DNA of 64,000 nt from a virus (taxonomy: Duplodnaviria > Heunggongvirae > Uroviricota > Caudoviricetes): the IMG/VR virus record IMGVR_UViG_3300042260_000241; one strand, given 5' to 3'. Below are positions 13,557 through 62,715 of this stretch, piece after piece (position 1 is the first letter of the stretch; the number at the start of each line of letters is the position of its first letter). The notes beneath the pieces are model-generated. The model made no database searches and was not told the DNA's origin. It saw only the letters and a program-made list of their open reading frames with translations. A program made the position numbers and the translations under genes.

Positions 13557-13700
13557 GGTGTACAATAATTCGTGGATGGTGTATAATACATCCATAGTCT
13601 GGTAAAACAGACAAACACAATCGAAGAAAAATTTTTCAAGATGGTGTACAAAAAATAGTAGATGGTGTATAATCTCTATCTACGCTGGTAAAACAGCAAA
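13557..13700 (+). promoter_or_regulatory. two tandem early-promoter modules upstream of the tRNA cluster
   Basis: Two copies of a ~50-nt module: TGTACAAWAATT-N-GGTGTATAAT followed by a conserved C(T)GGTAAAACAGCAAAC motif. Confidence 0.55.
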
Positions 13701-13814: not shown

Positions 13815-13889
13815 AGATTGTAAACTTTGATGGTGAAGTCCTGCCTCTTAAGCAGAGAGAACTCGGTTCGAGTCCGAGACGATCTACCA
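13815..13889 (+). tRNA. tRNA-Lys(CTT) (anticodon assignment tentative)
   Basis: Acceptor agattgt/acgatct, T-arm ctcggTTCGAGTccgag, CCA. The anticodon stem has one mismatch. Confidence 0.45.
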
Positions 13890-13983
13890 TATCGAAATAC
13901 ATTACACGCCTAGTAACTAGCGGTGGTAGCCTAGTGAAGGGTGCTTCTCCTACCAAGAAGTTTATAGTGTATTTCGATATGGT
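13890..13983 (+). ncRNA. long-stem hairpin element (family 2, copy 1)
   Basis: Near-perfect inverted repeats of about 16–19 bp (ATATCGAAATACATTACAC / GTGTATTTCGATAT) flank about 60 nt. The element sits directly between a tRNA CCA end and the next tRNA. Confidence 0.4.
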
Positions 13984-14068: not shown

Positions 14069-14074
14069 GTTTAT

Positions 14075-14149
14075 ATCGCGTTTGACTTTTGGTGAGGTCC
14101 GTAGGCTTTCAACTTACTCAGACGGGTTCGATTCCCGTACGCGATACCA
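14075..14149 (+). tRNA. tRNA-Glu(TTC)
   Basis: Acceptor atcgcgt/acgcgat, anticodon loop ctTTCaa, T-arm acgggTTCGATTcccgt, CCA. Confidence 0.55.
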
Positions 14150-14155
14150 GTTTTT

Positions 14156-14230
14156 GGGGGCAGTAGAGGGCTACGGCGGTGGCTTGCAACTTCCGCGACT
14201 AGATGGGTTCGATACCCACGGCTTCCACCA
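14156..14230 (+). tRNA. tRNA-Ala(TGC)-like, degenerate (possible pseudogene)
   Basis: It shares the gggggca acceptor with the Ala tRNA at 17569. The anticodon loop ctTGCaa sits in a 7-bp stem with a U-U mismatch, the D-arm is abnormal, and CCA is encoded. Confidence 0.35.
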
Positions 14231-14352
14231 AGTTTTAGGATACATGCAGCAAATATAACATAATTGTTATGTAGTTGGTTCGATCCCAACATTTTCCGCC
14301 ATTTTGGAAAATTAGCTCATTTGGTAGAGCAAACAAAAAGTGTATCCTGTTG
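14231..14352 (+). ncRNA. YrlA/Y-RNA-like element A (terminal covarying stem plus a permuted tRNA-like module)
   Basis: Terminal stem AGGATAC...GTATCCT. Internal order: ttgtt – variable – T-arm (gttggTTCGATCccaac) – attttcc g cc – loop – ggaaaat – D-arm (tagctcatttggtagagc) – aacaa. This is a tRNA-like domain in which the acceptor is closed by a loop and the anticodon stem is replaced by the terminal stem. Confidence 0.5.
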
Positions 14353-14358
14353 TTTAAT

Positions 14359-14452
14359 AGTGACGTGGGTGAGAGGCTTAAACCACCTTCCTGCTAAGAA
14401 GACGATCCAGCAAAAACTGGGTCCGAGGGTTCGAATCCCTCCGTCACTGCCA
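14359..14452 (+). tRNA. tRNA-Ser(GCT)
   Basis: Type II, long variable arm. Anticodon loop ctGCTaa, T-arm gagggTTCGAATccctc, CCA. Confidence 0.65.
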
Positions 14453-14459
14453 ATTTTAT

Positions 14460-14554
14460 GCCTGTATAGTTTAATGGTAGAACTCCGAGCTTATACCTCG
14501 GCATCGGCGCCAGATTAGCGCACAGTCTAGGTTCGAATCCTAGTGCAGGTACCA
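14460..14554 (+). tRNA. atypical type-II-like tRNA (anticodon loop cuUAUac?), 95 nt
   Basis: Acceptor gcctgta/tgcaggt, perfect anticodon stem ccgag/ctcgg, 26-nt variable region, T-arm ctaggTTCGAATcctag, CCA. Identity undetermined. Confidence 0.35.
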
Positions 14555-14576
14555 CTTTATAATGAAAGGAAGCGAT

Positions 14577-15140
14577 ATGCCTAGTGTATTTTTAGTAAGT
14601 GATACGCACTTCGGCCACGCTGGTGTATGCCGCTTCATGAGAAAAGACGGCACCACTAAGTTGAGGCCGTGGGATGATCCAGATGAAATGGATGAAGAAA
14701 TGGTTAGACGCTGGAACGAAACTGTTCGTCCCGGCGACAAGGTTTATCACCTTGGCGATGTAGTCATCAACCGTAAGGCGCTGAAGACACTCTATCGTCT
14801 CAATGGTGATAAAGTTTTGATTAAAGGTAATCACGACATCTTTAGACCAGAGGATTATGCTCCTCACTTTAGAGATGTTCGAGCATACCATGTAATGAAT
14901 GGAATGATTTTAAGTCATATTCCAGTACATCCTGATGCTCTTTATAGATTTGGATGTAACATTCATGGTCACTTGCATGATGGAAGAGTTATGATGCAAC
15001 CTGTAGGAAAGTATGGAACAGAAGTAGTTGATCCAAGATACTTTAGTGCATGTGTTGAACAACATGATTTTCGTCCTGTATTGTTTGAAGATGTCGTTAA
15101 ACAAGTTAAAGAACAGGGTGGTGTTATAGGCTTTAAGTAA
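14577..15140 (+). CDS. calcineurin-like metallophosphoesterase
   Basis: SDTHFGH, HLGDVV and GNHD motifs. The gene is embedded in the tRNA cluster. Confidence 0.7.
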   Translation: MPSVFLVSDTHFGHAGVCRFMRKDGTTKLRPWDDPDEMDEEMVRRWNETVRPGDKVYHLGDVVINRKALKTLYRLNGDKVLIKGNHDIFRPEDYAPHFRDVRAYHVMNGMILSHIPVHPDALYRFGCNIHGHLHDGRVMMQPVGKYGTEVVDPRYFSACVEQHDFRPVLFEDVVKQVKEQGGVIGFK

Positions 15141-15147
15141 TTAAGTT

Positions 15148-15224
15148 GCGCCTATAGCTCAGTTGGTCAGAGCAGTGGACTCATAATCCATTGGTCCTAG
15201 GTTCAAGTCCTAGTGGGCGCACCA
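15148..15224 (+). tRNA. tRNA-Met(CAT)
   Basis: Acceptor gcgccta/tgggcgc, D-arm tagctcagttggtcagagc, anticodon loop ctCATaa, T-loop TTCAAGT, CCA. Confidence 0.7.
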
Positions 15225-15257
15225 TACATATTTGGAGATACATTTGTAGGAGTAATC

Positions 15258-15818
15258 ATGTCACACGTTTTAGCACTTGATGCATCGGGCTTACCACGTA
15301 AGTGGATCAATTACGAAGATGCCATCACATATTTCGCAAAGGGAATGGTTGTCTGGTCACTAGGTGATACAGTAGCTACTTTCCGTGGCGGAGTGCAAAA
15401 TGATGGTGTACTTTCTGTTATTGAAACTCCTTCGATCATTGCAGTAAAAGGCAAAGGTTTTAACTTAGAAAAGGCCGGAAAGGTAGTACTTTCTAACCGT
15501 ACTTTGTTTGCTCGTGATAAGCACGTATGTGCTTACTGTGGCGGATCGTTCTCTAATGGACAACTTTCTCGTGATCATGTACATCCTGTTTCACGTGGAG
15601 GCGAAAACACTTGGATGAATTGTGTTACTGCATGTATAAAGTGTAATACTTCAAAAGGTGCACGTACCCCAAAAGAATTCGGTCACGAACTTCTGTACGT
15701 TCCTTATGAACCTAATCACTTCGAAAATATGATTCTGCAAAACCGGCACATCCGAGCAGATCAAATGGAGTACTTAATCGGTGGTGTTCCAAAACACTCT
15801 CGTGTACTTCTTAACTAA
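15258..15818 (+). CDS. HNH homing endonuclease
   Basis: HVHPVSRGGENTWMNCVTACIKCN is an HNH motif. The gene is free-standing between tRNA genes. Confidence 0.8.
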   Translation: MSHVLALDASGLPRKWINYEDAITYFAKGMVVWSLGDTVATFRGGVQNDGVLSVIETPSIIAVKGKGFNLEKAGKVVLSNRTLFARDKHVCAYCGGSFSNGQLSRDHVHPVSRGGENTWMNCVTACIKCNTSKGARTPKEFGHELLYVPYEPNHFENMILQNRHIRADQMEYLIGGVPKHSRVLLN

Positions 15819-15821
15819 TAT

Positions 15822-15899
15822 GTACGGGTGGCAGAGAGGCCCAATGCAAGAGTCTGCAAAACTCTAAAACCGTCGGTTCGAATCCGACTCCGTACTCCA
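15822..15899 (+). tRNA. tRNA-Cys(GCA)
   Basis: Anticodon stem agagt/actct, loop ctGCAaa, T-arm gtcggTTCGAATccgac, CCA. Confidence 0.65.
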
Positions 15900-16067
15900 G
15901 ACTGACGATTTCGGCTTGAAAAGCCCTTATAAATCAACAACTTATGAGGCTAAAATGCATACGTATGCATCCTGAGGGTGGATACCTTCTTCAAGCTGAT
16001 TTCGTTCATCCTGATGCATTCTGGATGAAAATTGTATACTAAAGGTTACAGTGTAACAATGCATAAA

Positions 16068-16200
16068 ATAGTGTACAATAATTGCTGGTTGGTGTATAAT
16101 CTATCCATACGCTGCTAAAACAGCAAAGGAATATTGTAGATCATAGCGGTGTACAATAATTCATGGATGGTTTATAATCTATCCATACGCTCTTTAACAA
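16068..16200 (+). promoter_or_regulatory. two further copies of the tRNA-cluster promoter module
   Basis: TGTACAATAATT-N-GGTGTATAAT / GGTTTATAAT followed by ATCCATACGCTG-N-AAAACAGCAAA. The module is near-identical to the copies at 13557–13700. Confidence 0.5.
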
Positions 16201-16228
16201 ATTGATCACATATAAATTGCCGGGAGGC

Positions 16229-16317
16229 AATCACTATATGTAAGTGTACTAGAATGCGCCATGACGGTCGAGGAATTTATTCCCACCACGCAGGAAGACA
16301 TAAGTACACTTACATAT
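16229..16317 (+). ncRNA. long-stem hairpin element (family 2, copy 2)
   Basis: Perfect 15-bp inverted repeat ATATGTAAGTGTACT / AGTACACTTACATAT flanking about 52 nt. It sits immediately 5' of tRNA-Glu. Confidence 0.4.
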
Positions 16318-16321
16318 AGAT

Positions 16322-16397
16322 GCACCGTTCGTCTATCGGTTTAGGACACCAGCCTTTCACGTTGGTAAGATGGGTTCGATTCCCATACGGTGTACCA
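16322..16397 (+). tRNA. tRNA-Glu(TTC) (second copy; assignment tentative)
   Basis: Anticodon stem ccagc/gttgg, loop ctTTCac, T-arm atgggTTCGATTcccat, CCA. Confidence 0.5.
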
Positions 16398-16404
16398 GAT
16401 TTCT

Positions 16405-16479
16405 GGTCTCAAAGTGTTCATGGACGCACGCGACACTGTCACTGTCGAAGAAGGGGATCGTTACCCCTTGGGACCGCCA
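16405..16479 (+). tRNA. tRNA-Asp(GTC)
   Basis: Anticodon stem cgaca/tgtcg, loop ctGTCac, unusual T-loop ATCGTTA, CCA. Confidence 0.65.
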
Positions 16480-16485
16480 AGTTTT

Positions 16486-16560
16486 GCCGGATTAGCACAG
16501 CGGTAGTGCAATCGCCTTGTAAGCGATAGGTCGTCTGTTCGAACCAGACATCCGGCACCA
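16486..16560 (+). tRNA. tRNA-Thr(TGT)
   Basis: D-arm tagcacagcggtagtgc, anticodon stem atcgc/gcgat, loop ctTGTaa, T-arm gtctgTTCGAACcagac, CCA. Confidence 0.65.
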
Positions 16561-16688
16561 AGACACTACGCCTCGCAGCGGTGTCAATCTCAACATAGGG
16601 TTGAGCGTGTATAGTTCGGGTCTACGCCAGTAGGTCTTTTCGGTCACCACGTAGAGTGACGGCTAAAGTTCGTAATGCCACAAATTTT

Positions 16689-16762
16689 GCCCGGTTAGCT
16701 CAAAAGTAGAGCATACGACTGATAATCGTAAGACAGAGGAGCGTTACCTCTACCGGGTACCA
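16689..16762 (+). tRNA. tRNA-Ile(GAT)
   Basis: Anticodon stem tacga/tcgta, loop ctGATaa, CCA. Confidence 0.65.
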
Positions 16763-16768
16763 AAACAT

Positions 16769-16853
16769 GGAGGTGCCGCCGTAATGGTATGGCAGGAGAC
16801 TGTAAATCTTCCGACTTAGGTCACAATAGGTTCGATCCCTATCACCTCCACCA
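16769..16853 (+). tRNA. tRNA-Tyr(GTA)
   Basis: Type II. Anticodon loop ctGTAaa, long variable arm, T-arm aggTTCGATCcct, CCA. Confidence 0.65.
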
Positions 16854-16861
16854 AGTTTAAT

Positions 16862-16941
16862 GGACTTCTGGTATTAGCAGGGAAGTACGCCGTGGGATTA
16901 ATCCTTCGGAGGCGTTGGTTCAATTCCAACGAAGTCCACCA
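16862..16941 (+). tRNA. tRNA-like, anticodon undetermined (contains the GGATTAATCC palindrome; possibly Leu-type or a pseudogene)
   Basis: Good acceptor (ggacttc/gaagtcc), T-arm gttggTTCAATTccaac and CCA, but I could not find a canonical anticodon stem. Confidence 0.35.
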
Positions 16942-16981
16942 AGTTTACATTATATCGCATTTGTGGTATAATAAAGAATAT

Positions 16982-17057
16982 TCCGAAGTAGCACAGAGGT
17001 AGTTGCAGCGCACTGTTAATGCGCCTGTCGTAGGTTCGATCCCTACCTTCGGAGCCA
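16982..17057 (+). tRNA. tRNA-Asn(GTT)
   Basis: Anticodon stem gcgca/tgcgc, loop ctGTTaa, T-arm gtaggTTCGATCcctac, CCA. Confidence 0.7.
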
Positions 17058-17127
17058 AGTTTTAGAGTAGGTTCAGCAAATAAAAAGCATTCAACTTGTA
17101 ATTGAAAACGCAAAAACTACTCTGTTG
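17058..17127 (+). ncRNA. Y-RNA-like element B (reduced member)
   Basis: agtttt-AGAGTAG-gTTCAGCAAa ... aaaaa-CTACTCT-gtt, with an internal anticodon-arm-like hairpin ttcaa-cttgtaa-ttgaa. Confidence 0.45.
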
Positions 17128-17132
17128 TATTT

Positions 17133-17216
17133 GCCTAGGTGGTGGAATGGTATACACTCTGGTCTTAGAAGCCAGCGCCGCGAGGATTGAGAGTTCGAGT
17201 CTCTCCCTAGGCACCA
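17133..17216 (+). tRNA. tRNA-Leu(TAG)
   Basis: Type II. Anticodon stem ctggt/gccag, loop ctTAGaa, T-arm gagagTTCGAGTctctc, CCA. Confidence 0.7.
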
Positions 17217-17568
17217 TGTTTTGTAAGTGTCAGCAAGAGAAAGTCACGCTGGTCAACATTCTTCGAAGGTGTTGGTCAGTAGAAGGTAGCGGGTTCGATC
17301 CCCGTCCGATCGGAAGATCGGAATACAGTTGGAGTATCGTCTGGACTATTATCCCGAGTGACGTACCGAGTCCCGGCCGGCTTAATTACACGGGTGAATG
17401 GTGTCTATAACGATGGGGACACTACTTACAAATTCAATACTCGCCTTGACTGATGGCGTAGAGAAGGATAAATTGTCAGTCATCTTTTTAAAGCGTACTG
17501 CTGAAGTTGGTTCAGTTAGATAGGGAGATCCAATTGCCTATATCGTTAGTATGCTTTAAAAAGATTTT

Positions 17569-17643
17569 GGGGGCATGGCGTAATTGGGAACGCAGTAGCT
17601 TTGCAAGCTTCAGTTCGGGGTTCGATTCCCCGTGCTTCCACCA
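17569..17643 (+). tRNA. tRNA-Ala(TGC)
   Basis: Acceptor gggggca/tgcttcc, D-arm gcgtaattgggaacgc, anticodon loop ttTGCaa, T-arm cggggTTCGATTccccg, CCA. Confidence 0.6.
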
Positions 17644-17904
17644 AGAATACTAAGACAATACTCGGTACTGTGAGTAGATGGAAACCGACCCATGCGAGAC
17701 TGCGTGGGCTTCAATTACGCAGGCATTGGTAATTCTGTGCAGGTCAGATTGACGATGCGAAAGTAAGTCGGTCCAGTAGGGTCAGGAAAAGTATTGTCGG
17801 CGGAAAAAGCTGCCGGACGTCAGAAGTTAGATTCATACACATCGGTATCCATGGACCCGGTGGCAATTTGTTTCTAACGCCGTGTATACGTACAAGATTT
17901 TTAT

Positions 17905-17981
17905 GCCCCGTTAACTCAGTGGATTAGAGTACTAGGCTACGAACTTAGGAGTCGGGCGTTCGAATCGCTCACGGGGTGCCA
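17905..17981 (+). tRNA. tRNA-Arg(ACG)
   Basis: Anticodon stem ctagg/cttag, loop ctACGaa, T-loop TTCGAAT, CCA. Confidence 0.65.
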
Positions 17982-17987
17982 AACAAT

Positions 17988-18063
17988 GCCAATATAGCTC
18001 AGATGGTAGAGCAGCGGACTGAAAATTCGTGTGTCGGTGGTTCAATTCCACCTATTGGCACCA
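17988..18063 (+). tRNA. tRNA-Phe(GAA)
   Basis: D-arm tagctcagatggtagagc, anticodon loop ctGAAaa, T-arm ggtggTTCAATTccacc, CCA. Confidence 0.7.
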
Positions 18064-18067
18064 ATAT

Positions 18068-18150
18068 GCACATGTGGCGGAATTGGTATACGCGCATGGT
18101 TGAGGTCCATGTCCTTCGGGTTGAGAGTTCGAGTCTCTCCTTGTGCACCA
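18068..18150 (+). tRNA. tRNA-Leu(GAG)
   Basis: Type II. Anticodon stem catgg/ccatg, loop ttGAGgt, T-arm gagagTTCGAGTctctc, CCA. Confidence 0.6.
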
Positions 18151-18156
18151 AGTTTA

Positions 18157-18230
18157 CGCGGGTAGGGTGGTCACCACTGCAGTCTCATAAGCTCGCAGCA
18201 TCGGCGGTTCGAATCCGTCACCCGCATCCA
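18157..18230 (+). tRNA. degenerate tRNA-like with a CAT anticodon loop (ctCATaa) and a weak anticodon stem
   Basis: T-arm ggcggTTCGAATccgtc, acceptor 3' strand plus CCA, but only 3 bp in the anticodon stem. Confidence 0.3.
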
Positions 18231-18296
18231 GTTTTAGGATCCATTCAGCAATCTTAAAAATTTCACTGTTAATGAAACCAAAAGAGGATCCTGTTA
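18230..18296 (+). ncRNA. Y-RNA-like element C (reduced member)
   Basis: gtttt-AGGATCC-aTTCAGCAAt ... aaaaga-GGATCCT-gtt, with an internal hairpin tttca-ctgttaa-tgaaa. Confidence 0.45.
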
Positions 18297-18301
18297 TTTT
18301 T

Positions 18302-18376
18302 GGTGATATAGCATAGACGGATATGCAGGGCTCTCATAAGGCTCACAGGAAGGATCGTTACCTTCTATCACCACCA
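18302..18376 (+). tRNA. tRNA-Met/Ile2(CAT)
   Basis: Acceptor ggtgata/tatcacc, anticodon loop ctCATaa, T-loop ATCGTTA, CCA. Confidence 0.6.
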
Positions 18377-18391
18377 TATATAGAATATCAT

Positions 18392-18468
18392 CGGAGTGTA
18401 GCACAGCCTGGTAGTGCGCTTGCTTTGGGAGCAAGAGGTCCAAGGTTCGAATCCTTGTACTCCGACCA
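18392..18468 (+). tRNA. tRNA-Pro(TGG)
   Basis: D-arm gcacagcctggtagtgc (Pro-like), anticodon stem cttgc/gcaag, loop ttTGGga, T-arm caaggTTCGAATccttg, CCA. Confidence 0.7.
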
Positions 18469-18476
18469 AATTTAGG

Positions 18477-18749
18477 ATGAATATGATTGTTAACCCTTTG
18501 AAAAAGAATGTTCTGGTTGCAGAACGTAATCGTGAAAACACAACTGCCAGTGGAATAGTAGTACAAGGCGTTGAAGGTCTTGGTGAATCCAAGTCTGCTA
18601 AAGTTCTTGCGATTGGGCCAGACGTCACTGAAGTAAAAGTTGGTGATACTGTTTATCTCATGTGGAATAAAGCAAAGCTTGTTAAAGTCGATGGTGCACA
18701 ACGTGCTATCGTCGCTGAAGAAGACATTGTTGCTGTTTTAGAAGATTAA
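18477..18749 (+). CDS. co-chaperonin GroES-like protein (functional analogue of T4 gp31)
   Basis: MNMIVNPLKKNVLVAERNRENTTASGIVV...VKVGDTVYL...VDGAQRAIVAEEDIVAVLED follows the GroES/Cpn10 sequence pattern. Confidence 0.7.
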   Translation: MNMIVNPLKKNVLVAERNRENTTASGIVVQGVEGLGESKSAKVLAIGPDVTEVKVGDTVYLMWNKAKLVKVDGAQRAIVAEEDIVAVLED

Positions 18750-18751
18750 TT

Positions 18752-18827
18752 GCTGCTATAGCTCTAGTGGTAGAGCGCTTCCTTGGTAAGGAAGAGGTCA
18801 CTGGTTCGAATCCAGTTAGCAGCACCA
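18752..18827 (+). tRNA. tRNA-Thr(GGT)
   Basis: D-arm tagctctagtggtagagc, anticodon stem cttcc/ggaag, loop ttGGTaa, CCA. Confidence 0.7.
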
Positions 18828-18842
18828 TTCCAGGAGTTTTAT

Positions 18843-19031
18843 ATGAAAATGAGTGATGGCGGCAAGGGAAGTTCTCCTCGTCCTTATTCTGTAGATAAAG
18901 ATACATACGCATCTAATTGGGATGCTATCTTTGGTAAAAAGAAAAAAGAAGATAATACTGGTGTACAAAAAACCGAGTATTATGATATAATTTCTACTGA
19001 AGATTGCTTAACTGATAAAGACAAACAATAA
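18843..19031 (+). CDS. hypothetical protein
   Basis: A 62-aa ORF between tRNA genes. Confidence 0.35.
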   Translation: MKMSDGGKGSSPRPYSVDKDTYASNWDAIFGKKKKEDNTGVQKTEYYDIISTEDCLTDKDKQ

Positions 19032-19038
19032 AGATATT

Positions 19039-19121
19039 GCCCGAGTGGTGGAATGGTAGACACAGCAGACTTAAAATCTGCCGCCTTGTGCGTACCGGTT
19101 CGAGTCCGGTCTCGGGTACCA
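19039..19121 (+). tRNA. tRNA-Leu(TAA)
   Basis: Type II. Anticodon stem gcaga/tctgc, loop ctTAAaa, T-arm accggTTCGAGTccggt, CCA. Confidence 0.7.
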
Positions 19122-19173
19122 ATATAATTTGCATTGGTAGCACGTCGATGTATAAATAAAGATAGGAGGCACT

Positions 19174-19779
19174 ATGCATTTTATCATTTATAAGACTACT
19201 CACGTTCAATCAGGCAAATATTATATTGGGATGCATTCAACTTCTGATTTAGAAGATGGCTATCTCGGTAGTGGAAAATGGATAAAAGCTGCCGTGAAAA
19301 AGCACGGCAGAGACTCATTTGAAAGAGTAATTCTCAAAGAGCTATCATCATACGATGATATGAAGAATGAAGAAGCTAAAGTAATCAATGAAGAAGTTCT
19401 CAATGATCCGTTATGCATGAATATGATGCATGGTGGAAAAGGCGGCTGGAAAACATTGAATGATTCTGATTCTGCATATCAAAGACGAAGTGAAGCTGGT
19501 AAAAAAGCACACGAAGTTCATAAGCATTTAGTGAATAATCTTCAAAGAGGAAGTAATCAAAAGACTGTTTCTACGTTAAAAGAAAAATACGGCAATGATC
19601 ATTTTGCAAAATTAGGCAAAATGAAAAATGTAACAGATGAATACCGATCAAAATTAAGTAAAGCTCAATGCGGTATGAAAATGATAAACAATGGTAAAAT
19701 AAACACCTTTGTGAAAAAAGAAGAATTGAATGAATACTTATCTAAAGGATGGGTATTAGGAAGAATTAGATCTCAGTAA
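19174..19779 (+). CDS. GIY-YIG homing endonuclease (SegB-like, free-standing in the tRNA cluster)
   Basis: FIIYKTTHVQSGKYYIGMH ... YLGSG is a canonical GIY-YIG motif. T4 segB occupies the equivalent position in the T4 tRNA region. Confidence 0.8.
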   Translation: MHFIIYKTTHVQSGKYYIGMHSTSDLEDGYLGSGKWIKAAVKKHGRDSFERVILKELSSYDDMKNEEAKVINEEVLNDPLCMNMMHGGKGGWKTLNDSDSAYQRRSEAGKKAHEVHKHLVNNLQRGSNQKTVSTLKEKYGNDHFAKLGKMKNVTDEYRSKLSKAQCGMKMINNGKINTFVKKEELNEYLSKGWVLGRIRSQ

Positions 19780-19957
19780 GATAACAGCAGTCGTCGGGTC
19801 TCCAAAACCCTGAAGTGTTGGTGCAACTCCAGCCTGGGATGCCAAATAAAAGTTGTGTCGACGACTAATCTCGGTGCTCCCGTTCTCCCGAGTTAAAATG
19901 ACTGTTTGTGGTTCTCCCCTGACGAGATAAAGCAAAAAGTAAGACGGGGCCAAATAT

Positions 19958-20048
19958 GGAAACGTGGCAGAGTTGGTCTATTGCTCCAGCCTTGAAAACT
20001 GGCGACTCTTAATCGGGTCCGTGAGTTCGAATCTCACCGTTTCCGCCA
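19958..20048 (+). tRNA. tRNA-Ser(TGA)
   Basis: Type II. Acceptor ggaaacg/cgtttcc, anticodon loop ctTGAaa, T-arm gtgagTTCGAATctcac, CCA. Confidence 0.6.
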
Positions 20049-20054
20049 AAATTA

Positions 20055-20144
20055 CGAGGGTTGCCAGAGAGGCCTATTGGCGCATCTTGGAAAGGTGATG
20101 GTTGCGAAAGCGGCACGAGAGTTCGAATCTCTCACCCTCGGCCA
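20055..20144 (+). tRNA. type II tRNA, probably Ser(GGA) (anticodon loop irregular)
   Basis: Acceptor cgagggt/accctcg, long variable arm, T-arm gagagTTCGAATctctc, CCA. Confidence 0.4.
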
Positions 20145-20149
20145 ATTTT

Positions 20150-20229
20150 GTGTGTTTCGTATAAATGTTTAGGGCATCATTACATGAGGGTAAAACCTCC
20201 GGATGTGGGTTCGAATCCCACAACACACA
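20150..20229 (+). tRNA. atypical tRNA-like element without encoded CCA
   Basis: Perfect 7-bp acceptor (gtgtgtt/aacacac) and T-arm gtgggTTCGAATcccac, but the D and anticodon region is aberrant. Confidence 0.3.
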
Positions 20230-20231
20230 AT

Positions 20232-20319
20232 GGAAGATTAAACAGACTGGGTCTGTAACTGTTTCGAAAACAGATTGATCGCTTATGCGGTTGCAGTTCG
20301 ATTCTGCAGTCTTCCTCCA
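20232..20319 (+). tRNA. tRNA-Ser(CGA)
   Basis: Type II. Anticodon loop ttCGAaa, T-arm tgcagTTCGATTctgca, CCA. Confidence 0.55.
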
Positions 20320-20325
20320 ATAAGA

Positions 20326-21471
20326 TTAGAGAATATCAAATTCTGGATATATTGTTTTATATGATGTATTTGCAATTATATCAAATTGTTCTAAAAATTC
20401 TTTAGCACTATCCCAATTTGGGGTATCATATTCTAATAATTCTAATGCAGTTTGAATCAGAACCTGACTTCCTTCTATTTTAGAAGGATTTTTAAAGTTT
20501 TTTAATTTTTCTTTATAAATGTTTTTAACACTCTTTGGTAAATTACTAACTTGAAGAATATTGTCAAGTACTGGACTACTCATAATATGAGTAAACGCAA
20601 TACCAGTTATGCTCATTATTTCTTCTAATGTGGTTATGAGTTCTGGGATATATCCTACGTTTAAAAGACTTATAGTAGAATTTACACCATAGGAAAAATT
20701 TTTATTATTAGAAATATTATCGATGATGTTATTTAAGTCACAACCATGACGTATATAATCATTCACTATCTTATTGCCATCGATACTGAGATTTAATTGG
20801 ATCTTGCAATTTAACTCATTTAGAATAGCAATGATATTTTTATTTGGTTTAGTATAATTTGTAGAAAATGTTATTAGTCGCAATTGCGTTGATTCTTGTT
20901 TAATTAAATTAATTAAGTCTAAACAATCCGAATCTATGAGAGGTTCTCCTCCAGAAATAGTGATAGACACTACTTCTTTGAATGAACCTTTAAGCTTATC
21001 TATGTCAAAGCGATTATTTACTTCAGTAAAATTATATAGATTTTTTAAAAATATACTTTTCTTAGAAAGTTCTCCTAGTTTTGAACTAGAATATGGCGAA
21101 CACATTCTACATGCAAGATTACATGTATTTTTAAGAGATATATTAAATACTTTTGGAAAAGAGTTTGAATTTAGATCAACTGAAATGCCGTATTTAGTAA
21201 AGTCTTTATTCTTAAAAGAACGATATGAAAAAGTTGTATCAGGAACATTGCATGCTTCACAATTATGATTAATAGTATTGGAGATAATGTTTTTTCTTAA
21301 TGATTTAAACTCATCATCAGTCCATATCTTTATAAAAGATTCGACTGGACCTTCAAGTTTTTTATATTTGCAACATGGCGCAATAGTATTATTTTGAAGA
21401 TTTAGTTGAGCATGAAGCCAAGGTACTGCACATCGATTTCCATTTTCAATTAGATCATCTGTAGTTTTCAT
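20326..21471 (-). CDS. radical SAM domain protein
   Basis: CNLACRMC matches the CxxxCxxC radical SAM cluster motif and ITISGGEPLI is a SAM-binding motif. GC content is much lower than in the surrounding sequence, and the gene is on the opposite strand. Confidence 0.7.
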   Translation of the reverse strand: MKTTDDLIENGNRCAVPWLHAQLNLQNNTIAPCCKYKKLEGPVESFIKIWTDDEFKSLRKNIISNTINHNCEACNVPDTTFSYRSFKNKDFTKYGISVDLNSNSFPKVFNISLKNTCNLACRMCSPYSSSKLGELSKKSIFLKNLYNFTEVNNRFDIDKLKGSFKEVVSITISGGEPLIDSDCLDLINLIKQESTQLRLITFSTNYTKPNKNIIAILNELNCKIQLNLSIDGNKIVNDYIRHGCDLNNIIDNISNNKNFSYGVNSTISLLNVGYIPELITTLEEIMSITGIAFTHIMSSPVLDNILQVSNLPKSVKNIYKEKLKNFKNPSKIEGSQVLIQTALELLEYDTPNWDSAKEFLEQFDIIANTSYKTIYPEFDIL

Positions 21472-21520
21472 AAAATAAAAAAAAAAAAAAAATAAGTATA
21501 TAACATTATATATAGATCAT

Positions 21521-21595
21521 GCGGGCATGGTGCTAGTGGTAACACATAACTTTGCCAAAGTTAAGTTGCGGGTTCAATTCCCGCTGCCCGCTCCA
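21521..21595 (+). tRNA. tRNA-Gly(GCC)
   Basis: Anticodon stem taact/agtta, loop ttGCCaa, T-arm gcgggTTCAATTcccgc, CCA. Confidence 0.7.
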
Positions 21596-21608
21596 TTTAG
21601 GATTATGT

Positions 21609-21764
21609 ATGAACGAGTTAAATGAACACGGTGTTCCACTACATGCATGCAATGAGTATAGACATGATGAACATTGGTGGACATGGGCAAAATGGATTAC
21701 ACAAAATTGTAAAAGACTTGGTTCAGATGGACTGAACGTATATTACCAAAAGCCTGTACAATAA
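21609..21764 (+). CDS. hypothetical small protein
   Basis: A 51-aa ORF following the tRNA. Confidence 0.3.
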   Translation: MNELNEHGVPLHACNEYRHDEHWWTWAKWITQNCKRLGSDGLNVYYQKPVQ

Positions 21765-21789
21765 TTCGTGATTGTGGTATAATATAAGT

Positions 21790-22065
21790 ATGGTAAATGA
21801 TAAAGAACATGAAATTATGTCAATCACTCAGGAAGAATGTTCCGAAGTGATTCAAGCAATTAGCAAGATCAATCGATTTGGTTTTGATGGACGACATCCT
21901 GAAAAGACTTACAATAATCGTGAACATCTTGAGGAAGAAGTAGGAGACGTCTTAGCAATGATTGATCTTCTACTTGAGAATGAGATTGTGTCTTGGGCTA
22001 ATGTGAACAAGGCACGTAGAGCAAAGTTTGAGAAGCTCCGTCAATGGAGCACTATCATGGACTAA
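21790..22065 (+). CDS. MazG-like NTP pyrophosphohydrolase (small)
   Basis: EEVGDVL matches the MazG EExxE/D motif. An early promoter TATAAT lies at about 21776. Confidence 0.45.
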   Translation: MVNDKEHEIMSITQEECSEVIQAISKINRFGFDGRHPEKTYNNREHLEEEVGDVLAMIDLLLENEIVSWANVNKARRAKFEKLRQWSTIMD

Positions 22066-22070
22066 ATAAT

Positions 22071-22144
22071 GCGGGATTGGTATAGGGGTTGTGCCCTAGT
22101 CTTCCAAACTAGAGAGACCGGTTCGAGCCCGGTATCCCGCTCCA
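22071..22144 (+). tRNA. tRNA-Gly(TCC)
   Basis: Anticodon stem ctagt/actag, loop ctTCCaa, T-arm accggTTCGAGCccggt, CCA. Confidence 0.65.
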
Positions 22145-22168
22145 TTTAACTTTAACCAGGAGAAAGCA

Positions 22169-22300
22169 ATGAAACGAAAACTGATCGTCAAGCAGCGTAA
22201 CCGCTTCGTTGCTTTGGCACAATTCCGAAAAGCGGGAGTGCATCGCAAAACTAATAAAGCTTTGCGTAAATCACTCAACCAAGCTATTTTGGAAGTGTAA
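22169..22300 (+). CDS. small basic protein (possible bS21-like ribosomal protein fragment)
   Basis: A 43-aa ORF with a strong AGGAG Shine-Dalgarno sequence. FVALAQFRKAGV resembles the S21 FDVALRRFKRSCEKAGV segment. Confidence 0.3.
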   Translation: MKRKLIVKQRNRFVALAQFRKAGVHRKTNKALRKSLNQAILEV

Positions 22301-22366
22301 CTCAAAGGCTAGAGTACCCGGCTTTTAACCGGATAGTTGTGGGTTCGAGTCCCACCACTTCTACCA
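22291..22366 (+). tRNA. tRNA-Lys(TTT)
   Basis: Anticodon stem ccgg/ccgg, loop ctTTTaa, T-arm gtgggTTCGAGTcccac, CCA. Confidence 0.65.
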
Positions 22367-22510
22367 TATAGTTAAGTACATTTTGTCACTATCGTATGGG
22401 TAAGCCCATCAATCTCCCCTCAACACCGGAGTCGCGCTCGGTTCGTAGGGATCGGAATGGATTGAAATAGCTACCAGGCCTGACAACTTGGGAAATGTAC
22501 TTAACTATAT
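22367..22510 (+). ncRNA. long-stem hairpin element (family 2, copy 3)
   Basis: 17-bp inverted repeat TATAGTTAAGTACATTT / AAATGTACTTAACTATA flanking about 108 nt. It lies between the tRNA-Lys CCA and tRNA-His. Confidence 0.4.
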
Positions 22511-22587
22511 GGTGACTATAGTGTAAAGGTTCAGCACCTCGCTCTGTGAAAGCGATAGAATGGGATCGTTCCCCATTAGTTACCCCA
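22511..22587 (+). tRNA. tRNA-His(GTG)
   Basis: An extra G-1 opposite a C discriminator, anticodon stem tcgct/agcga, loop ctGTGaa, CCA. Confidence 0.7.
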
Positions 22588-22594
22588 TGAATAT

Positions 22595-22670
22595 GGATCC
22601 TTAGCTCAGCGGTACGAGCAACTCCCTTACAAGGAGAAGGTCATAGGTTCAATCCCTATAGGATCCACCA
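22595..22670 (+). tRNA. tRNA-Val(TAC)
   Basis: D-arm tagctcagcggtacgagc, anticodon loop ctTACaa, T-arm ataggTTCAATCcctat, CCA. Confidence 0.7.
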
Positions 22671-22778
22671 AGTTATAGGATAGGTTCAGCAAACCATAAC
22701 GCATGCGAATGGATCGCAATTTGACTTCTAATCAAACCTTGGGGGTTCAATTCCCTCTGCAAAACAACTATCCTGTTG
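22671..22778 (+). ncRNA. Y-RNA-like element D (tRNA-like member with T-arm)
   Basis: agttat-AGGATAG-gTTCAGCAAa ... aaaacaa-CTATCCT-gtt. Internally it has an anticodon-arm-like hairpin tttga-cttctaa-tcaaa and a T-arm gggggTTCAATTccctc. Confidence 0.5.
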
Positions 22779-22800
22779 AATACGAATACTCTACGAATTC

Positions 22801-22926
22801 GGAGATGTGATGTAATGGTAGCATAGCATAGCAAAAAACCAATTCTGTAAAGAATTGTTCCAGCATATTCTAAGCTCAACTTTGTAAAAGTTCTTGTCCG
22901 TGGTTCGAATCCCGGCATCTCCACCA
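22801..22926 (+). tRNA. tRNA-like gene with a ~50-nt internal insertion (two tgtaaa-loop hairpins)
   Basis: Perfect acceptor ggagatg/catctcc, D-arm, T-arm and CCA, but about 126 nt long. Confidence 0.35.
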
Positions 22927-22931
22927 ATTTC

Positions 22932-23006
22932 ATCTCTGTAGCTCAAAGGTAGAGCGCTGCTTTGACATAGCAGATACGGCGGATCGTTACCGTCCAGAGG
23001 TACCAT
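22932..23006 (+). tRNA. tRNA-Val(GAC)
   Basis: Anticodon stem ctgct/agcag, loop ttGACat, T-loop ATCGTTA, CCA. Confidence 0.6.
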
Positions 23007-23007
23007 G

Positions 23008-23085
23008 CGCTTGTGACGAAAACTGGTAAACGTGCTTGTCTCAAACACAAGATTTTGAGGGTTCGACTCCCTCCGAGCGCACCAG
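23008..23085 (+). tRNA. tRNA with anticodon CAA and a short variable arm (identity uncertain)
   Basis: Acceptor gcgcttg/cgagcgc, anticodon stem cttgt/acaag, loop ctCAAac, T-arm gagggTTCGACTccctc, CCA. Confidence 0.5.
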
Positions 23086-23095
23086 AGGATTTGAT

Positions 23096-23635
23096 ATGCA
23101 CGCAATTACTTGGAAACCCGGTGAAAATAAACAATTAGATGAATTGTTTGATAAGCTACGCGAACAACAATTTAGTTTAGGTGATAGATTATCTTATAAT
23201 TACAATACGCATATGTTATCATCCGTTATAGCACTCACTATAACATTTGATGATGAAATTCCCGTTGTGTGCAGTACAATAGCATCAAAAAATATATGGC
23301 CACAAGGTGTTTATAGAATCTATAATAGAACTTGGAAACCAACACGAAGAAAAGAATCAATTCATCGAGGTGTTACACCTGAGATGGCATTAACCGGAAA
23401 AAGTCAGATAAAATGGCTTGAAGAAAATACCGATTGCAAATTGTATTTTTTCTCTAGAGAAACTAAGAATTGGCGCACATGGTCGATTAGATCTTTAAAA
23501 CGAGATCACGAAATGGAATTCTTAGATGGAGAACACGAGTATCTTACATGTGAAAATAAAGATGATCCTAAATGTTGGCAAACTATGATTTATAATGGTG
23601 ATTCAAGTTTATTGAAAAATTGGCCCCATAAATGA
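23096..23635 (+). CDS. hypothetical protein
   Basis: A 179-aa ORF with a GAGGA Shine-Dalgarno sequence. Confidence 0.5.
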   Translation: MHAITWKPGENKQLDELFDKLREQQFSLGDRLSYNYNTHMLSSVIALTITFDDEIPVVCSTIASKNIWPQGVYRIYNRTWKPTRRKESIHRGVTPEMALTGKSQIKWLEENTDCKLYFFSRETKNWRTWSIRSLKRDHEMEFLDGEHEYLTCENKDDPKCWQTMIYNGDSSLLKNWPHK

Positions 23636-23668
23636 TGTACAAAAAATAAGTTTTAATTTATAATCAAG
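23636..23668 (+). promoter_or_regulatory. early promoter
   Basis: TGTACAAAAAATAAG...TTTATAAT. Confidence 0.45.
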
Positions 23669-23902
23669 AAAATGGGATGATTACAGCAACTTTAATTCTA
23701 CGAAGCTAAAGTACTGCCACTATAGGAGGACCACCGTAAGGTGTAAATTACGTGGCTAGGGAGAAAACCTGAAGTGAAAATCTGACTCCGATAATCGGAA
23801 ATATGATAGTAGTCTATCTAGTTCGGCAGGGTATAAGTGCCTGGTTAGAAAACCAAATAACGAACCGGTCATCCCGCGTTATTATTAACTCATTGGAATA
23901 TT

Positions 23903-24352
23903 ATGTCACTTACACTTAAAAATCTTGAGAGTGCACTAGCCGGTGAATCTGTGGCACATATTAAATATCGATACTTTGCCAAGATCGCTCGCGAAGAAGG
24001 CTATGAAGAAGTTGCAAAACACTTTGAACATACTGCCGATCAAGAAATTCTTCACGCATGGGGTCATCTTGAACTTCTTATTGGTAAACCTTCTACGAAG
24101 GAATGCCTTGAGAAAGCTATCGAAGGTGAAACCTATGAATTTAATTACATGTACCCAGAGTTTCATGCCGCTGCTGTAAAAGAAGGCGACATGGCTGCTG
24201 CTGGTGTAGCACTCGAACAAATCGCAGAATCGAAAGAACATGCTGAACAGTTTAAAGCTGTATTGGCAAAGGCTGAAAAGCGATTCGCTGCTCTAGCAAA
24301 AGTTGAAAAACGTCATGCTGAAGCATATCAACAAGTTTGGGAGAGTCTATAA
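23903..24352 (+). CDS. rubrerythrin-like ferritin-fold di-iron protein (N-terminal domain only)
   Basis: ExxH-type di-iron ligand spacing in a 149-aa four-helix-bundle-like sequence. Confidence 0.6.
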   Translation: MSLTLKNLESALAGESVAHIKYRYFAKIAREEGYEEVAKHFEHTADQEILHAWGHLELLIGKPSTKECLEKAIEGETYEFNYMYPEFHAAAVKEGDMAAAGVALEQIAESKEHAEQFKAVLAKAEKRFAALAKVEKRHAEAYQQVWESL

Positions 24353-24480
24353 TGGATCATGTATGTATTGTTTGTGGTCACGTCCACGATGAAGAATTAG
24401 AAGGAAAATGGGAAGAACTTCCAGATGACTTCGTCTGCCCAGAGTGCGGCGTAGGCAAAGAAGACTACGAAACTCTATAA
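24352..24480 (+). CDS. rubredoxin
   Basis: A 42-aa ORF under the track threshold. CIVCG ... CPECG matches the rubredoxin CxxCG...CPxCG motif. It has a TAATG overlap with the upstream gene. Confidence 0.75.
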   Translation: MDHVCIVCGHVHDEELEGKWEELPDDFVCPECGVGKEDYETL

Positions 24481-24622
24481 AAATATTAGGATAGGTTCAG
24501 CAACACCTCTATCGGCGTGAAAGCGCCACATAGGACTGGGCGTAGACAAGTTAAATCCTTTACGTCCTAATGAGTCTTCGAGTTCCTCATGAAAAATAAA
24601 GAAGTAGGCAACTATCCTGTTT
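24481..24622 (+). ncRNA. Y-RNA-like element E, immediately upstream of the Ro60-like gene
   Basis: attAGGATAGgTTCAGCAAc ... gcaaCTATCCTgtt terminal stem. Internal hairpins ggcg-tgaaa-gcgcc and atgag...ctcat. Confidence 0.5.
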
Positions 24623-24629
24623 ACATTAA

Positions 24630-24660
24630 TTCGTTGATATGTTATAATCTATCTATGAAT
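24630..24660 (+). promoter_or_regulatory. early promoter for the Ro60-like gene
   Basis: ACATTAATTCGTTGATATGTTATAAT. Confidence 0.45.
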
Positions 24661-24746
24661 TGAGGTTAAGTTCCGCAAATCATCGCTGATAATTGGGTCC
24701 GCCCAACATTAGCTCCATTTATTAACCTGTTGAAAGTGAAAAAATC

Positions 24747-26183: not shown

Positions 26184-26199
26184 GCTTCGGCTTAATATA

Positions 26200-26226
26200 A
26201 CAAAGGCCCCGAAAGGGGCCTTTGTA
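26200..26226. terminator. bidirectional rho-independent terminator
   Basis: aaaggcccc-gaaa-ggggccttt lies between convergent genes. Confidence 0.6.
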
Positions 26227-26238
26227 GTTTCTGCATTT

Positions 26239-26853
26239 TTATTTTGACAATGGGTTGTCTATTGCTTTTTGAATTTTACTATCAACGCTAGAGTTAAGCT
26301 TGTCTAACTTACTATCAGTATCTCTACGTAGACGATCCATGTCACGTCTCATAGCTTCAACTTCATCACGTGTTTTATCAAGCGTTGCACGAACATCATT
26401 GCGAATTGCCTTTAAGTCCTGATCAGTTTCACGCTGAGCTTGCTTTACTGAGCGTTCGATCTGTTCAGCAACTGTTTCAGTGCGACGGATGTCAGTCTTA
26501 AGATCGTTCTTAATATCACGAGTGTAGTCTGTCGTCTTTGCCGAATTTTCTTCGATGACTGCAAGGCGCTTGTCGAATTCACTAAGATCTGGAGATACAT
26601 ACTCTGCGATCTTTTTCTTCATGCCTTGATAGTCTTTATAGACTTCAAACGTACCATATAAACCGCCAAGAGTGGATGATAAGATTGTGAAAGCAACCAT
26701 TAGTTTAGCTGGTGTGAATTCGTATCCACCAATGCTAATTACTGTATCTTTGCTTGCATATTTCTTAGCAGCAGCTTCTAGCTTGTCTACTTTTTTGTTA
26801 ATGTCAACTGTGTCTGTCATTTTAGTTTCCTTTCTTGTTATACTGTAAGTCAA
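26239..26853 (-). CDS. membrane-anchored coiled-coil protein
   Basis: An N-terminal transmembrane segment followed by a long charged heptad-rich region. Confidence 0.5.
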   Translation of the reverse strand: MTYSITRKETKMTDTVDINKKVDKLEAAAKKYASKDTVISIGGYEFTPAKLMVAFTILSSTLGGLYGTFEVYKDYQGMKKKIAEYVSPDLSEFDKRLAVIEENSAKTTDYTRDIKNDLKTDIRRTETVAEQIERSVKQAQRETDQDLKAIRNDVRATLDKTRDEVEAMRRDMDRLRRDTDSKLDKLNSSVDSKIQKAIDNPLSK

Positions 26854-62688: not shown

Positions 62689-62715
62689 ATCGCATTTGGT
62701 TTATAATATAAAGAA

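Follow-up and report, generated by a model that had tools for sequence, protein, structure and literature searches.

A family of small RNAs with a covarying CAGCAA handle beside the gene of a Ro60-shaped phage protein: most likely a class of phage Y RNAs

Animals and bacteria, as well as a few phages, are known to have particles in which the protein Ro60 is combined with Y RNAs. Y RNA genes adjoin that of Ro60 in the same orientation; their products imitate transfer RNA (tRNA) and have a 5' motif located at the terminal helix (Chen et al. 2014, PMC4201824). Among phages, the Ro60 protein of Thermus phage phiLo binds two upstream Yrl RNAs and the host PNPase (PMC12135203), and gp130 of the E. 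coli Felixounavirus Bas63, a Ro60-like protein encoded directly upstream of a tRNA array, counters the Ppl defence system (PhageMaP preprint, PMC11482910); the same preprint contains the guess that some of the neighbouring 'tRNAs' are Y RNAs, none of which was identified (PMC11482910). Here, we analyse a stretch of 64,000 nucleotides (nt), referred to as the window, from a large, uncultured phage of the Caudoviricetes (IMG/VR record IMGVR_UViG_3300042260_000241). It contains a family of small RNA elements that share a terminal helix and the motif CAGCAA, here called the handle, and that lie between tRNA genes and upstream of the gene for a Ro60-shaped protein (open reading frame (ORF) 24747-26183). 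The window is part of a 166,777-bp contig of a JGI metagenome (3300047483, Ga0485316_000033). A near-identity DNA search of INPHARED returned the tRNA genes as sole matches, and thus no close deposited relative. Five elements, A to E, and a possible sixth had been proposed in a preliminary description made from the sequence.

The tRNA region of phage T4 likewise has stable RNAs of unknown function interspersed with tRNA genes. The stable RNAs of phage T5 resemble the elements of the window in being small, structured, in part tRNA-like, and interspersed and co-oriented with tRNA genes, but the T5 tRNA region has neither the CAGCAA handle nor a Ro-like gene. With YrlA-type Y RNAs (RF02553), the elements share the position on the same strand as, and adjoining, the gene of a Ro60-shaped protein as well as paired 5' and 3' ends that are followed by a short conserved motif in the 5' strand, and the permuted module of YrlA, with its T arm, closed acceptor-like hairpin and D arm, recurs in element A. 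They differ in this motif, which is N3-CAGCAA in the window and GNCGAA(N0-1)G in bacteria, in their putative protein partner, which belongs to DUF2828/DUF7788 and not to TROVE/vWA_Ro60, and in their number of seven copies, mostly inside tRNA arrays and with inserts beyond the YrlA module. Like Yrl1 and Yrl2 of phiLo with phiRo60, they are phage-encoded tandem small RNAs directly upstream of a Ro60 homologue and combine a terminal stem with an internal loop; in phiLo, the motif is CGAA, the Ro60 homologue is recognisable and binding was found by experiment (PMC12135203), whereas the motif in the window is CAGCAA and binding is predicted. The protein of the window and Bas63 gp130 are both Ro60-like by structure and both adjoin a tRNA array, and the DUF2828 homologue of Felixounavirus is about 40% identical to the former; the Bas63 work provides a phenotype and no RNA partner, the window candidate RNAs and no phenotype. 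In the searchable papers on DUF2828, Ro-like proteins and phage Y RNAs, Y RNAs are reported for TROVE-annotated proteins and phiLo alone, the handle RNAs are not described, no RNA partner is given for DUF2828 proteins, and we found none that addresses the function of these 'Ro-like' proteins.

The CAGCAA handle and its tRNA-like inserts

ARAGORN predicts 32 tRNA genes at 13.7-23.1 kilobases (kb) of the window, every one on the + strand, and calls none of the elements as tRNA. At the gathering threshold, Rfam models matched tRNAs and one transfer-messenger RNA (tmRNA) in the window and nothing else, and no family of Rfam 15 matches the handle RNAs at threshold. All five elements A to E were present on the + strand at the coordinates of the preliminary description and with the layout given there, i.e. 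a 7-nt block that is perfectly complementary to its 3' partner in every case: A (14233-14352; AGGATAC/GTATCCT, followed by ATG-CAGCAA), B (17060-17127; AGAGTAG/CTACTCT, GTT-CAGCAA), C (18232-18296; AGGATCC/GGATCCT, ATT-CAGCAA), D (22673-22778; AGGATAG/CTATCCT, GTT-CAGCAA) and E (24484-24622; AGGATAG/CTATCCT, GTT-CAGCAA). The pattern TAGRNTNNNWKCAGCAA has five exact matches, all on the + strand and all at A to E; with one mismatch, 8 matches were observed compared to a shuffle mean of 0.85, and none of 100 shuffles reached 8. As had been described, A to D follow the CCA ends of tRNAs or tRNA-like genes, at a gap of 5-6 nt, and for A to C the next tRNA lies 9-10 nt downstream. B is flanked by tRNA-Asn and tRNA-Leu, and C by a CCA-ending tRNA-like gene and tRNA-Met. 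The left-hand sequence (a)gtttt, counted as part of the elements at first, is indeed present but not specific to them, because it is the usual spacer after CCA ends and also separates plain tRNAs.

For the comparative analysis, 80 viral contigs encoding a protein with 58-97% identity to that of ORF 24747-26183 were fetched and scanned for a signature in which a 7-mer is followed by 3 nt and CAGCAA and, at most 300 nt further on, by its own reverse complement. The scan gave 268 gene-sense matches, comprising 213 distinct sequences and about 40 different stem sequences, with the consensus TTTT / A-G-R-A-T-N-N / N-T-W / CAGCAA ... A-rich / N-N-A-T-Y-C-T / G-T-T. The handle is made up of a closing helix of 7 base pairs (bp) that differs between copies, a 3-nt linker, CAGCAA (rarely replaced by CCGCAA or CTGCAA), an A-rich 3' strand and an unpaired G past the helix. 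A perfect partner was found for 42% of the 635 sense-strand CAGCAA hexamers, compared to 1.6-6.3% in reversed, complemented, same-sequence or antisense controls. A one-sided test using the 5' signature alone was chosen since it involves no selection on pairing; it gave a perfect partner in 240 of 289 cases on the sense strand and in 0 of 13 on the antisense strand. The unpaired G directly follows the 3' arm in 239 of these 240 and is the best-conserved flank.

A covariance model, R1, was built from 75 short members, namely B, C and 73 relatives from other contigs, with the outer helix alone annotated. On both strands of the window at E ≤ 10, R1 recovered A (40.4 bits), D (33.8 bits) and E (26.3 bits), which were outside the training set, besides the training members B (72.9 bits) and C (71.6 bits), and nothing else; over the window plus the 80 loci at E ≤ 0.01, it detected 226 copies, all on the gene-sense strand. 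Among 118 distinct relatives (826 alignment cells), the seven handle pairs were 100% Watson-Crick, compared to 74% in shuffles and 34-46% in slid controls, and both-sided changes were seen at six of the seven pairs (covariation score 0.66 vs. 0.14). Orthologous copies have a nearly unchanged insert and a stem that has changed on both strands, as exemplified by B with AGAGTAG/CTACTCT and its counterpart in locus L009 with AGAATAG/CTATTCT. The pairing statistics and these orthologues confirm the initial claim of a selected RNA helix with compensatory covariation, and the homologous elements that had been proposed to be sought in related phage genomes exist, with stem covariation. An extension of the helix was considered and rejected, as the linker and the 3' flank show a correlation that is not one of complementarity: a GTT linker goes with A as the base preceding the 3' arm, ATT or TTT with C, and TAA with T.

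The member count of the window rises from the five originally listed to at least seven. The signature scan revealed F (23674-23876, + strand; GGGATGA/TCATCCC, TTA-CAGCAA, 3' G), which has a 170-nt insert and forms the leader of rubrerythrin and rubredoxin genes. R1 did not match F in the 64-kb window with filters on or off; relatives of F, 220-279 nt in length and with GGGATGA or GGGTTGG stems, occur in six loci (L005, L027, L028, L037, L045 and L072). G (24663-24729, + strand; AGGTTAA/TTAACCT, GTT-CCGCAA, 3' G) was detected both by the signature scan and by R1 (20.8 bits, E = 0.005, filters off) and follows E within the messenger RNA (mRNA) leader of the Ro-like gene. The filters-off search fragmented long members and scored them lower, and was used solely to find G. 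The sixth candidate, first placed at 17219-17450 and here termed H (17219-17433, + strand), proved to be a conserved structured RNA and a possible member of the family. About 215 nt long, it has GT-CAGCAA after a 9-bp terminal helix as well as a T-arm-like hairpin, and is kept in three loci (L057, L062 and L064) with several covarying helices; the linker is 2 nt long, the 3' G is lacking, and R1 gave no match with either filter setting. Since its terminal helix is invariant in the four sequences, this helix gives no covariation evidence.

The inserts enclosed by the handle are varied and related to different parts of tRNA. The insert of A consists of a hairpin, a T arm, a closed acceptor-like hairpin and a D arm, of which the last three align to the Rfam YrlA model (RF02553; 34.2 bits, E = 2e-4). 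In seven YrlA-type copies from different loci, the three helices are kept with both-sided changes in 13 of 23 pairs. The model alignment and the covariation of the arms support the permuted tRNA-like domain of the YrlA type that had been assigned to A; it is present in A and six relatives alone and lacking in B, C, E, F and G. The half-stem ttgtt/aacaa that was proposed along with it competes with a local hairpin favoured by the minimum-free-energy fold. D keeps the T arm and the anticodon-like arm (CTTCTAA) already noted and has a D-like arm besides (Rfam tRNA, 31.9 bits at 22701-22761). These arms are in normal tRNA order, resembling a cloverleaf, and are conserved or covarying in four loci (L011, L015, L017 and L076); D is not a tRNA with full cloverleaf and chargeable 3' end, as the handle takes the place of the acceptor stem.

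B and C proved to be anticodon-arm-like hairpins with 5 bp and 7-nt loops of the form CU-NNN-AA, as had been stated: TTCAA-CTTGTAA-TTGAA with a GC/GC extension in B, and TTTCA-CTGTTAA-TGAAA in C. Their loops are identical to those of the window's tRNA-Thr(UGU) and tRNA-Asn(GUU), respectively. Inserts nearly identical to that of B occur in five loci (L009, L037, L057, L074 and L076) with stems that differ and retain complementarity. Among the 86 short members (≤75 nt), 52 have a 5-bp stem and a 7-nt loop; 37 of these loops start with CU and 41 end with AA, which is the signature of an anticodon loop, and the middle triplets are diverse. E-type copies have in common a 3' hairpin with a TTCGAG-type loop, which is followed by an A-rich tract in E, and 10 other loci have positional relatives of E immediately ahead of the Ro-like gene. 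The insert helices carry G.U pairs and show RNA-type covariation. The variety of tRNA-derived inserts on one and the same handle points to a modular design. A weak Rfam match of C to Dictyostelium class I RNA and matches to plastid untranslated regions on the antisense strand of tRNAs were dismissed as chance or tRNA echoes.

The Ro60-shaped protein and its RNA neighbours

The gene at 24747-26183 on the + strand codes for a putative ring protein of 478 amino acids with matches to Pfam DUF2828 and DUF7788. The neighbour announced as Ro60-like is so at the level of the fold, but not as a member of the TROVE family by sequence: Pfam TROVE (PF05731) and vWA_Ro60 (PF25045) gave no match in this ORF even at E ≤ 10, and neither phmmer nor a 24-sequence profile matched any PDB sequence. 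An AlphaFold2 model (predicted local distance difference test (pLDDT) score 72, predicted template modelling (pTM) score 0.67) was compared to the PDB using Foldseek. Ranks 1-8 were all occupied by Ro60/TROVE structures (E 1e-7 to 5e-6, template modelling (TM) score 0.44-0.57), aligned over the full length of about 510 columns, namely those of phage phiLo, Xenopus, Deinococcus Rsr and human Ro60; behind these ranked isolated vWA domains. Since Ro60 structures were the best matches over the full length, we regard the protein as sequence-divergent and Ro60-shaped. According to the model, it has an alpha-helical repeat ring and a C-terminal vWA-type domain in common with Ro60/TROVE proteins (Xenopus 1YVR, D. 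radiodurans Rsr 2NVO, human 9NEN), at an identity of 13-16%. Close homologues number thousands in metagenomes, and tblastn detected homologues of 30-47% identity in 710 deposited phage genomes, in some of which GenBank records already label them as 'Ro-like RNA binding protein'. A scan of genome collections gave 10 contigs, all within metagenome-assembled genomes; these are probably phage DNA and therefore uninformative on cellular homologues.

In the 80 loci, the Ro-like gene has 259 copies upstream and 2 downstream of it. Among the 74 loci with enough upstream sequence, 50 have a copy whose end is 13-25 nt ahead of the start codon; in the window, this copy is G, at a distance of 18 nt. The usual order is promoter, F-type, E-type and G-type element and Ro-like gene, with the rubrerythrin and rubredoxin genes inserted between F and E in the window. 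A promoter-like site on the + strand at 23636-23664 (TGTACA-N17-TATAAT, a match to the consensus alone) ends 10 nt before F, and -10-like boxes also precede elements with GG-starting stems in other loci. Another one, TTTACA-N17-TATAAT with TG upstream, occupies 24620-24648 on the + strand, its end being 15 nt ahead of G. The 14-nt box TATAATCTATCTAT (24643-24656), which is opened by the -10 hexamer of this site, extends to 6 nt before G and has 14 matches in the window compared to 2.15 expected.

The handle was also found in each of eight cultured phage lineages whose homologues have 30-47% identity to the protein of the window, on the sense strand, within a few kb of the gene and often in tandem beside it. 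Phage KVP40 has four copies inside its tRNA array, Felixounavirus SP116 three among the first tRNAs past the gene (26,053-26,738 in its record), with AGACCNN stems, cyanophage BUCT-ZZ01 four, one of them directly upstream of the gene, and Campylobacter phage CP8 two in the interval between the last tRNA and the gene. Three tandem copies each are located after the gene in mycobacteriophage Bazzle, in a 25-kb locus without annotated tRNA, before the gene in Listeria phage LP-066, and after the gene in Staphylococcus phage S-CoN_Ph8, where they begin 20 nt past the gene and more than 2 kb from the single tRNA of the locus; Bacillus phage 136 has nine copies. R1, although built from the clade of the window alone, matched at E ≤ 0.01 in KVP40, SP116, BUCT-ZZ01, CP8, Bazzle, LP-066 and S-CoN_Ph8, and Bacillus phage 136 was matched as well, every time on the sense strand. 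As controls, we used the tRNA region of T5 and the canonical Ro60 locus of mycobacteriophage Bxz1. The former, with 25 tRNAs, eight annotated stable RNAs and no Ro-like gene, gave no R1 match and no signature among the tRNAs. In the latter, gp220 is a strong match to TROVE and vWA_Ro60, serving as positive control for Pfam, and a YrlA-like RNA with GCCGAG after the terminal helix lies 190 nt upstream of the Ro gene; no CAGCAA handle was found in 50 kb. The eight lineages and the two controls together indicate that the handle tracks the DUF2828 lineage, and neither tRNA arrays nor canonical Ro60.

Some further observations were made in these loci. In KVP40 (L083), a lone 5' half of the handle (11965-11984; CGACATT-TTA-CAGCAA) without convincing 3' partner is located 20 nt before the start codon of the Ro-like gene and may be a half-site operator. 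In LP-066 (L089), the Ro-like gene is followed at a distance of 1.3 kb by a gene for an RtcB-type RNA ligase (10815-12026), an arrangement reminiscent of bacterial rsr-rtcB operons. In S-CoN_Ph8 (L090), a tiny coding sequence for a 'hypothetical protein' (9109-9198) wholly covers one copy of the handle RNA and another one (9328-9456) has just 2 nt in common with the end of the last copy; the former at least has probably been annotated in error. The eight 'stable RNAs with unknown functions' among the tRNAs of T5 (L088, 10285-21567) all lack the CAGCAA handle, and the unexplained small RNAs of phage tRNA arrays are thus of more than one kind.

Interpretation and alternative explanations

We interpret the elements as Y-RNA-like RNAs and partners of the Ro60-shaped protein encoded by ORF 24747-26183, with a probability of roughly 0.75; the handle RNAs most likely form a class of phage Y RNAs that had not been described. 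A terminal helix, as in Y RNAs, is present in every copy and fully paired, and the position near a Ro60-type gene on the same strand, as in bacterial and phage Y RNAs, recurs in the related loci and in the eight cultured lineages. This interpretation draws as well on the fixed motif, the tRNA-like inserts and the fold of the protein.

A number of points weigh against it. The Y-RNA motifs GGUCCGA (animals) and GNCGAA(N0-1)G (bacteria) do not occur in the handle RNAs, which have CAGCAA in the same position. The YrlA gathering score of 69 bits is reached neither in the window nor in five cultured phages (L083-L087), A remaining at half of this threshold because the handle region does not fit the model. 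Folding energy separates A alone from shuffled sequence (z -4.1), B to E folding no better than shuffles (z -0.5 to -2.0), and the case therefore rests on comparative evidence. A minority of the related loci have no copy within 1 kb of the gene. G.U pairs are nearly absent from the handle, with 0 in the 826 alignment cells and about 7 among some 230 distinct copies, which is unusual for an RNA helix; it fits a strict read-out of a short AU-rich helix by a protein, and a palindrome acting at the DNA level would look alike. The protein matches neither Pfam TROVE nor any PDB sequence, and its link to Ro60 comes from a model of medium confidence (pLDDT 72, TM score about 0.5). As to Bas63, gp130 very probably belongs to the DUF2828 family, since a DUF2828 homologue adjoins the tRNA array in all 253 of 253 Felixounavirus-type records; this assignment is taken from the conservation across the genus and the described position of gp130, not from its own sequence.

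The location of many elements would also suit a role in cis in the processing or insulation of the tRNA operon, with no link to the Ro-like protein; they would then be spacer hairpins that guide cleavage by RNase E, RNase III or RNase P or prevent misfolding of the tRNAs. A to D are flush between tRNAs, 42% of the copies start at most 12 nt past a tRNA or another copy, and different hairpins occupy inter-tRNA gaps of the window, too. We consider this unlikely in view of the tandem copies of Bazzle in a locus without annotated tRNA, the Staphylococcus phage copies that are next to the Ro-like gene and far from the sole tRNA, the presence of F and G in mRNA leaders, and the lack of such elements from T5 with its 25 tRNAs and eight stable RNAs; moreover, phages whose hosts differ widely have CAGCAA and the 3' G in common, the DUF2828 gene being the sole neighbour that they share. 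The short distance between the last copy and the start codon in 50 of 74 loci, and the promoter-like site directly upstream of G, could be explained by a translational operator or mRNA leader signal of the Ro-like gene, the dispersed copies being by-products or titrating decoys. As a full account of the family this is slightly less probable still, as most copies are kilobases away within tRNA arrays, copies are downstream of the gene in Felix O1-like, Staphylococcus and Bazzle phages, and conserved, covarying tRNA-like inserts would be needless for an operator. Such a function is compatible with Y-RNA-like RNAs and does not replace them.

Decayed tRNA genes or pseudo-tRNAs, left over neutrally from tRNA duplication in the cluster, would account for T arms, D arms and anticodon-like loops in the inserts, and 'tRNA-OTHER' pseudo-tRNAs are annotated in KVP40 and Felix O1-like arrays. 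The best-conserved part, however, is the handle, which is not a tRNA feature, its pairing is maintained by compensatory changes in more than 200 distinct copies, and orthologues combine near-identical inserts with stems changed on both sides, so that we give this explanation very little weight. Just as improbable is an element acting at the DNA level, such as a small mobile inverted repeat or a recombination or nuclease site. The almost purely Watson-Crick helix with hardly any G.U pairs is reminiscent of DNA palindromes and homing-endonuclease genes are located within the same cluster, but 226 of 226 copies have one orientation, variable inverted repeats around a fixed asymmetric core are the opposite of transposon ends, the flanks (5' T-rich, 3' GTT) are not direct repeats, and the insert helices have G.U pairs and RNA-type covariation. 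A miniature inverted-repeat transposable element was ruled out based on the variable arms, the non-repeat flanks, the single orientation and the lack of a target duplication. The terminal inverted repeats with target-site duplications that the preliminary description had raised as a possibility are discarded on these grounds.

Assuming that the elements are Y-RNA-like partners of the Ro60-shaped protein, the handle would be its putative binding site, by analogy with Ro60 biology (PMC4201824, PMC12135203), as it occupies the position of GGUCCGA or GNCGAA at the terminal helix of canonical Y RNAs. The insert would act as effector or mimic and, while tethered to the ring or gated by it, may present a tRNA-like surface to tRNA-recognising enzymes of the host or of its defence systems. 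Judging from their position, A to D would be transcribed in the tRNA operon and freed by RNase P and 3'-end processing like the neighbouring tRNAs, and copies released from tRNA arrays would have a U-rich 3' tail of 9-10 nt. F, E and G may constitute one promoter-led unit that ends in the Ro-like gene. Since the end of the last copy and the start codon are 18 nt apart, the bound protein could repress its own translation. The role in infection is the least certain step; by analogy with bacterial Ro60/Y RNA/PNPase particles and the reported anti-Ppl activity of Bas63 gp130, it is likely to be RNA surveillance or counter-defence.

More tentatively, the CAGCAA handle might serve as a universal adaptor that mounts any tRNA-shaped piece on the Ro-like ring, be it an anticodon arm of chosen identity, a T arm and acceptor domain or a whole cloverleaf, and the copies might be protein-protected tRNA decoys or baits. 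These could be aimed at tRNA-targeting host immunity or could recruit host tRNA enzymes, exonucleases or ligases, the gene-proximal copy feeding back on the synthesis of the protein. If this speculative scheme were true, an RNA-based counter-defence module would be widespread, with more than 700 sequenced phages carrying it, and would have escaped notice because the RNAs are unannotated or mislabelled.

As Y-RNA-like RNAs, the elements would add to the known Ro60/Y-RNA-type particles a type that departs from these in its protein lineage and handle motif, and whose RNAs are present in many copies per genome and have inserts drawn from every part of tRNA. They provide a candidate RNA partner for the DUF2828 'Ro-like' proteins of hundreds of cultured phages, including KVP40, Felix O1-like, Listeria P100-like and Campylobacter phages and cluster E mycobacteriophages, for which no partner was identified before, and a simple signature, as several such RNAs adjoin every homologue examined. 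This would be a second, sequence-divergent Ro-like lineage that uses the same two-part RNA design with another handle. The elements also account for unannotated gaps in phage tRNA arrays, and possibly for some of the oddities there, and they make the reported counter-defence by a Ro60-like protein (PMC11482910) testable via candidate RNAs in tractable phages.

Neighbouring features of the window

In addition to the ARAGORN predictions, the cluster contains tRNA-like genes at 14074-14146, 14157-14230, 16862-16939, 18155-18229, 20150-20229 and 22801-22926 with weak Rfam matches to tRNA, tRNA-Sec or tmRNA ends. The one at 14157-14230 has a CCACCA terminus and an Ala-like G3.U70 pair, and the one at 22801-22926 resembles a tRNA with a long insert. 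The tmRNA gene at 62667-63076 encodes the tag ANDEVYALAA and scores on the betaproteobacterial and the permuted tmRNA models. Four long hairpins between tRNAs or directly before a tRNA (13886-13983, 16234-16319, 17482-17565 and 22363-22513) have stems of 17-21 bp, two of them perfect and two at 94-95% complementarity, which enclose 48-109 nt. Since these hairpins lack the CAGCAA handle, they form a separate class; they are possibly double-strand-specific processing sites or additional small RNAs.

Protein-coding genes among the tRNA genes and handle RNAs comprise an HNH gene (15259-15819; Pfam match), an ORF (19175-19780) that is GIY-YIG-like by eye and has no Pfam match on record, and, on the opposite strand in the middle of the cluster, a radical S-adenosylmethionine (SAM) gene (20320-21494) with an A run (21474-21494; 20 of 21 A, T on the coding strand) immediately 5' of its start codon. 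The promoter-like consensus TGTACA/TTTACA-N17-TATAAT recurs on the + strand, often lengthened to TATAATCTATCYAT (14 matches compared to 2.15 expected), at 13559-13673, 16072-16186, 16944-16972, 18962-18991, 21755-21783, 23636-23664, 24620-24656 and in the region of 32-37 kb, and probably represents an early or middle promoter class of the phage.

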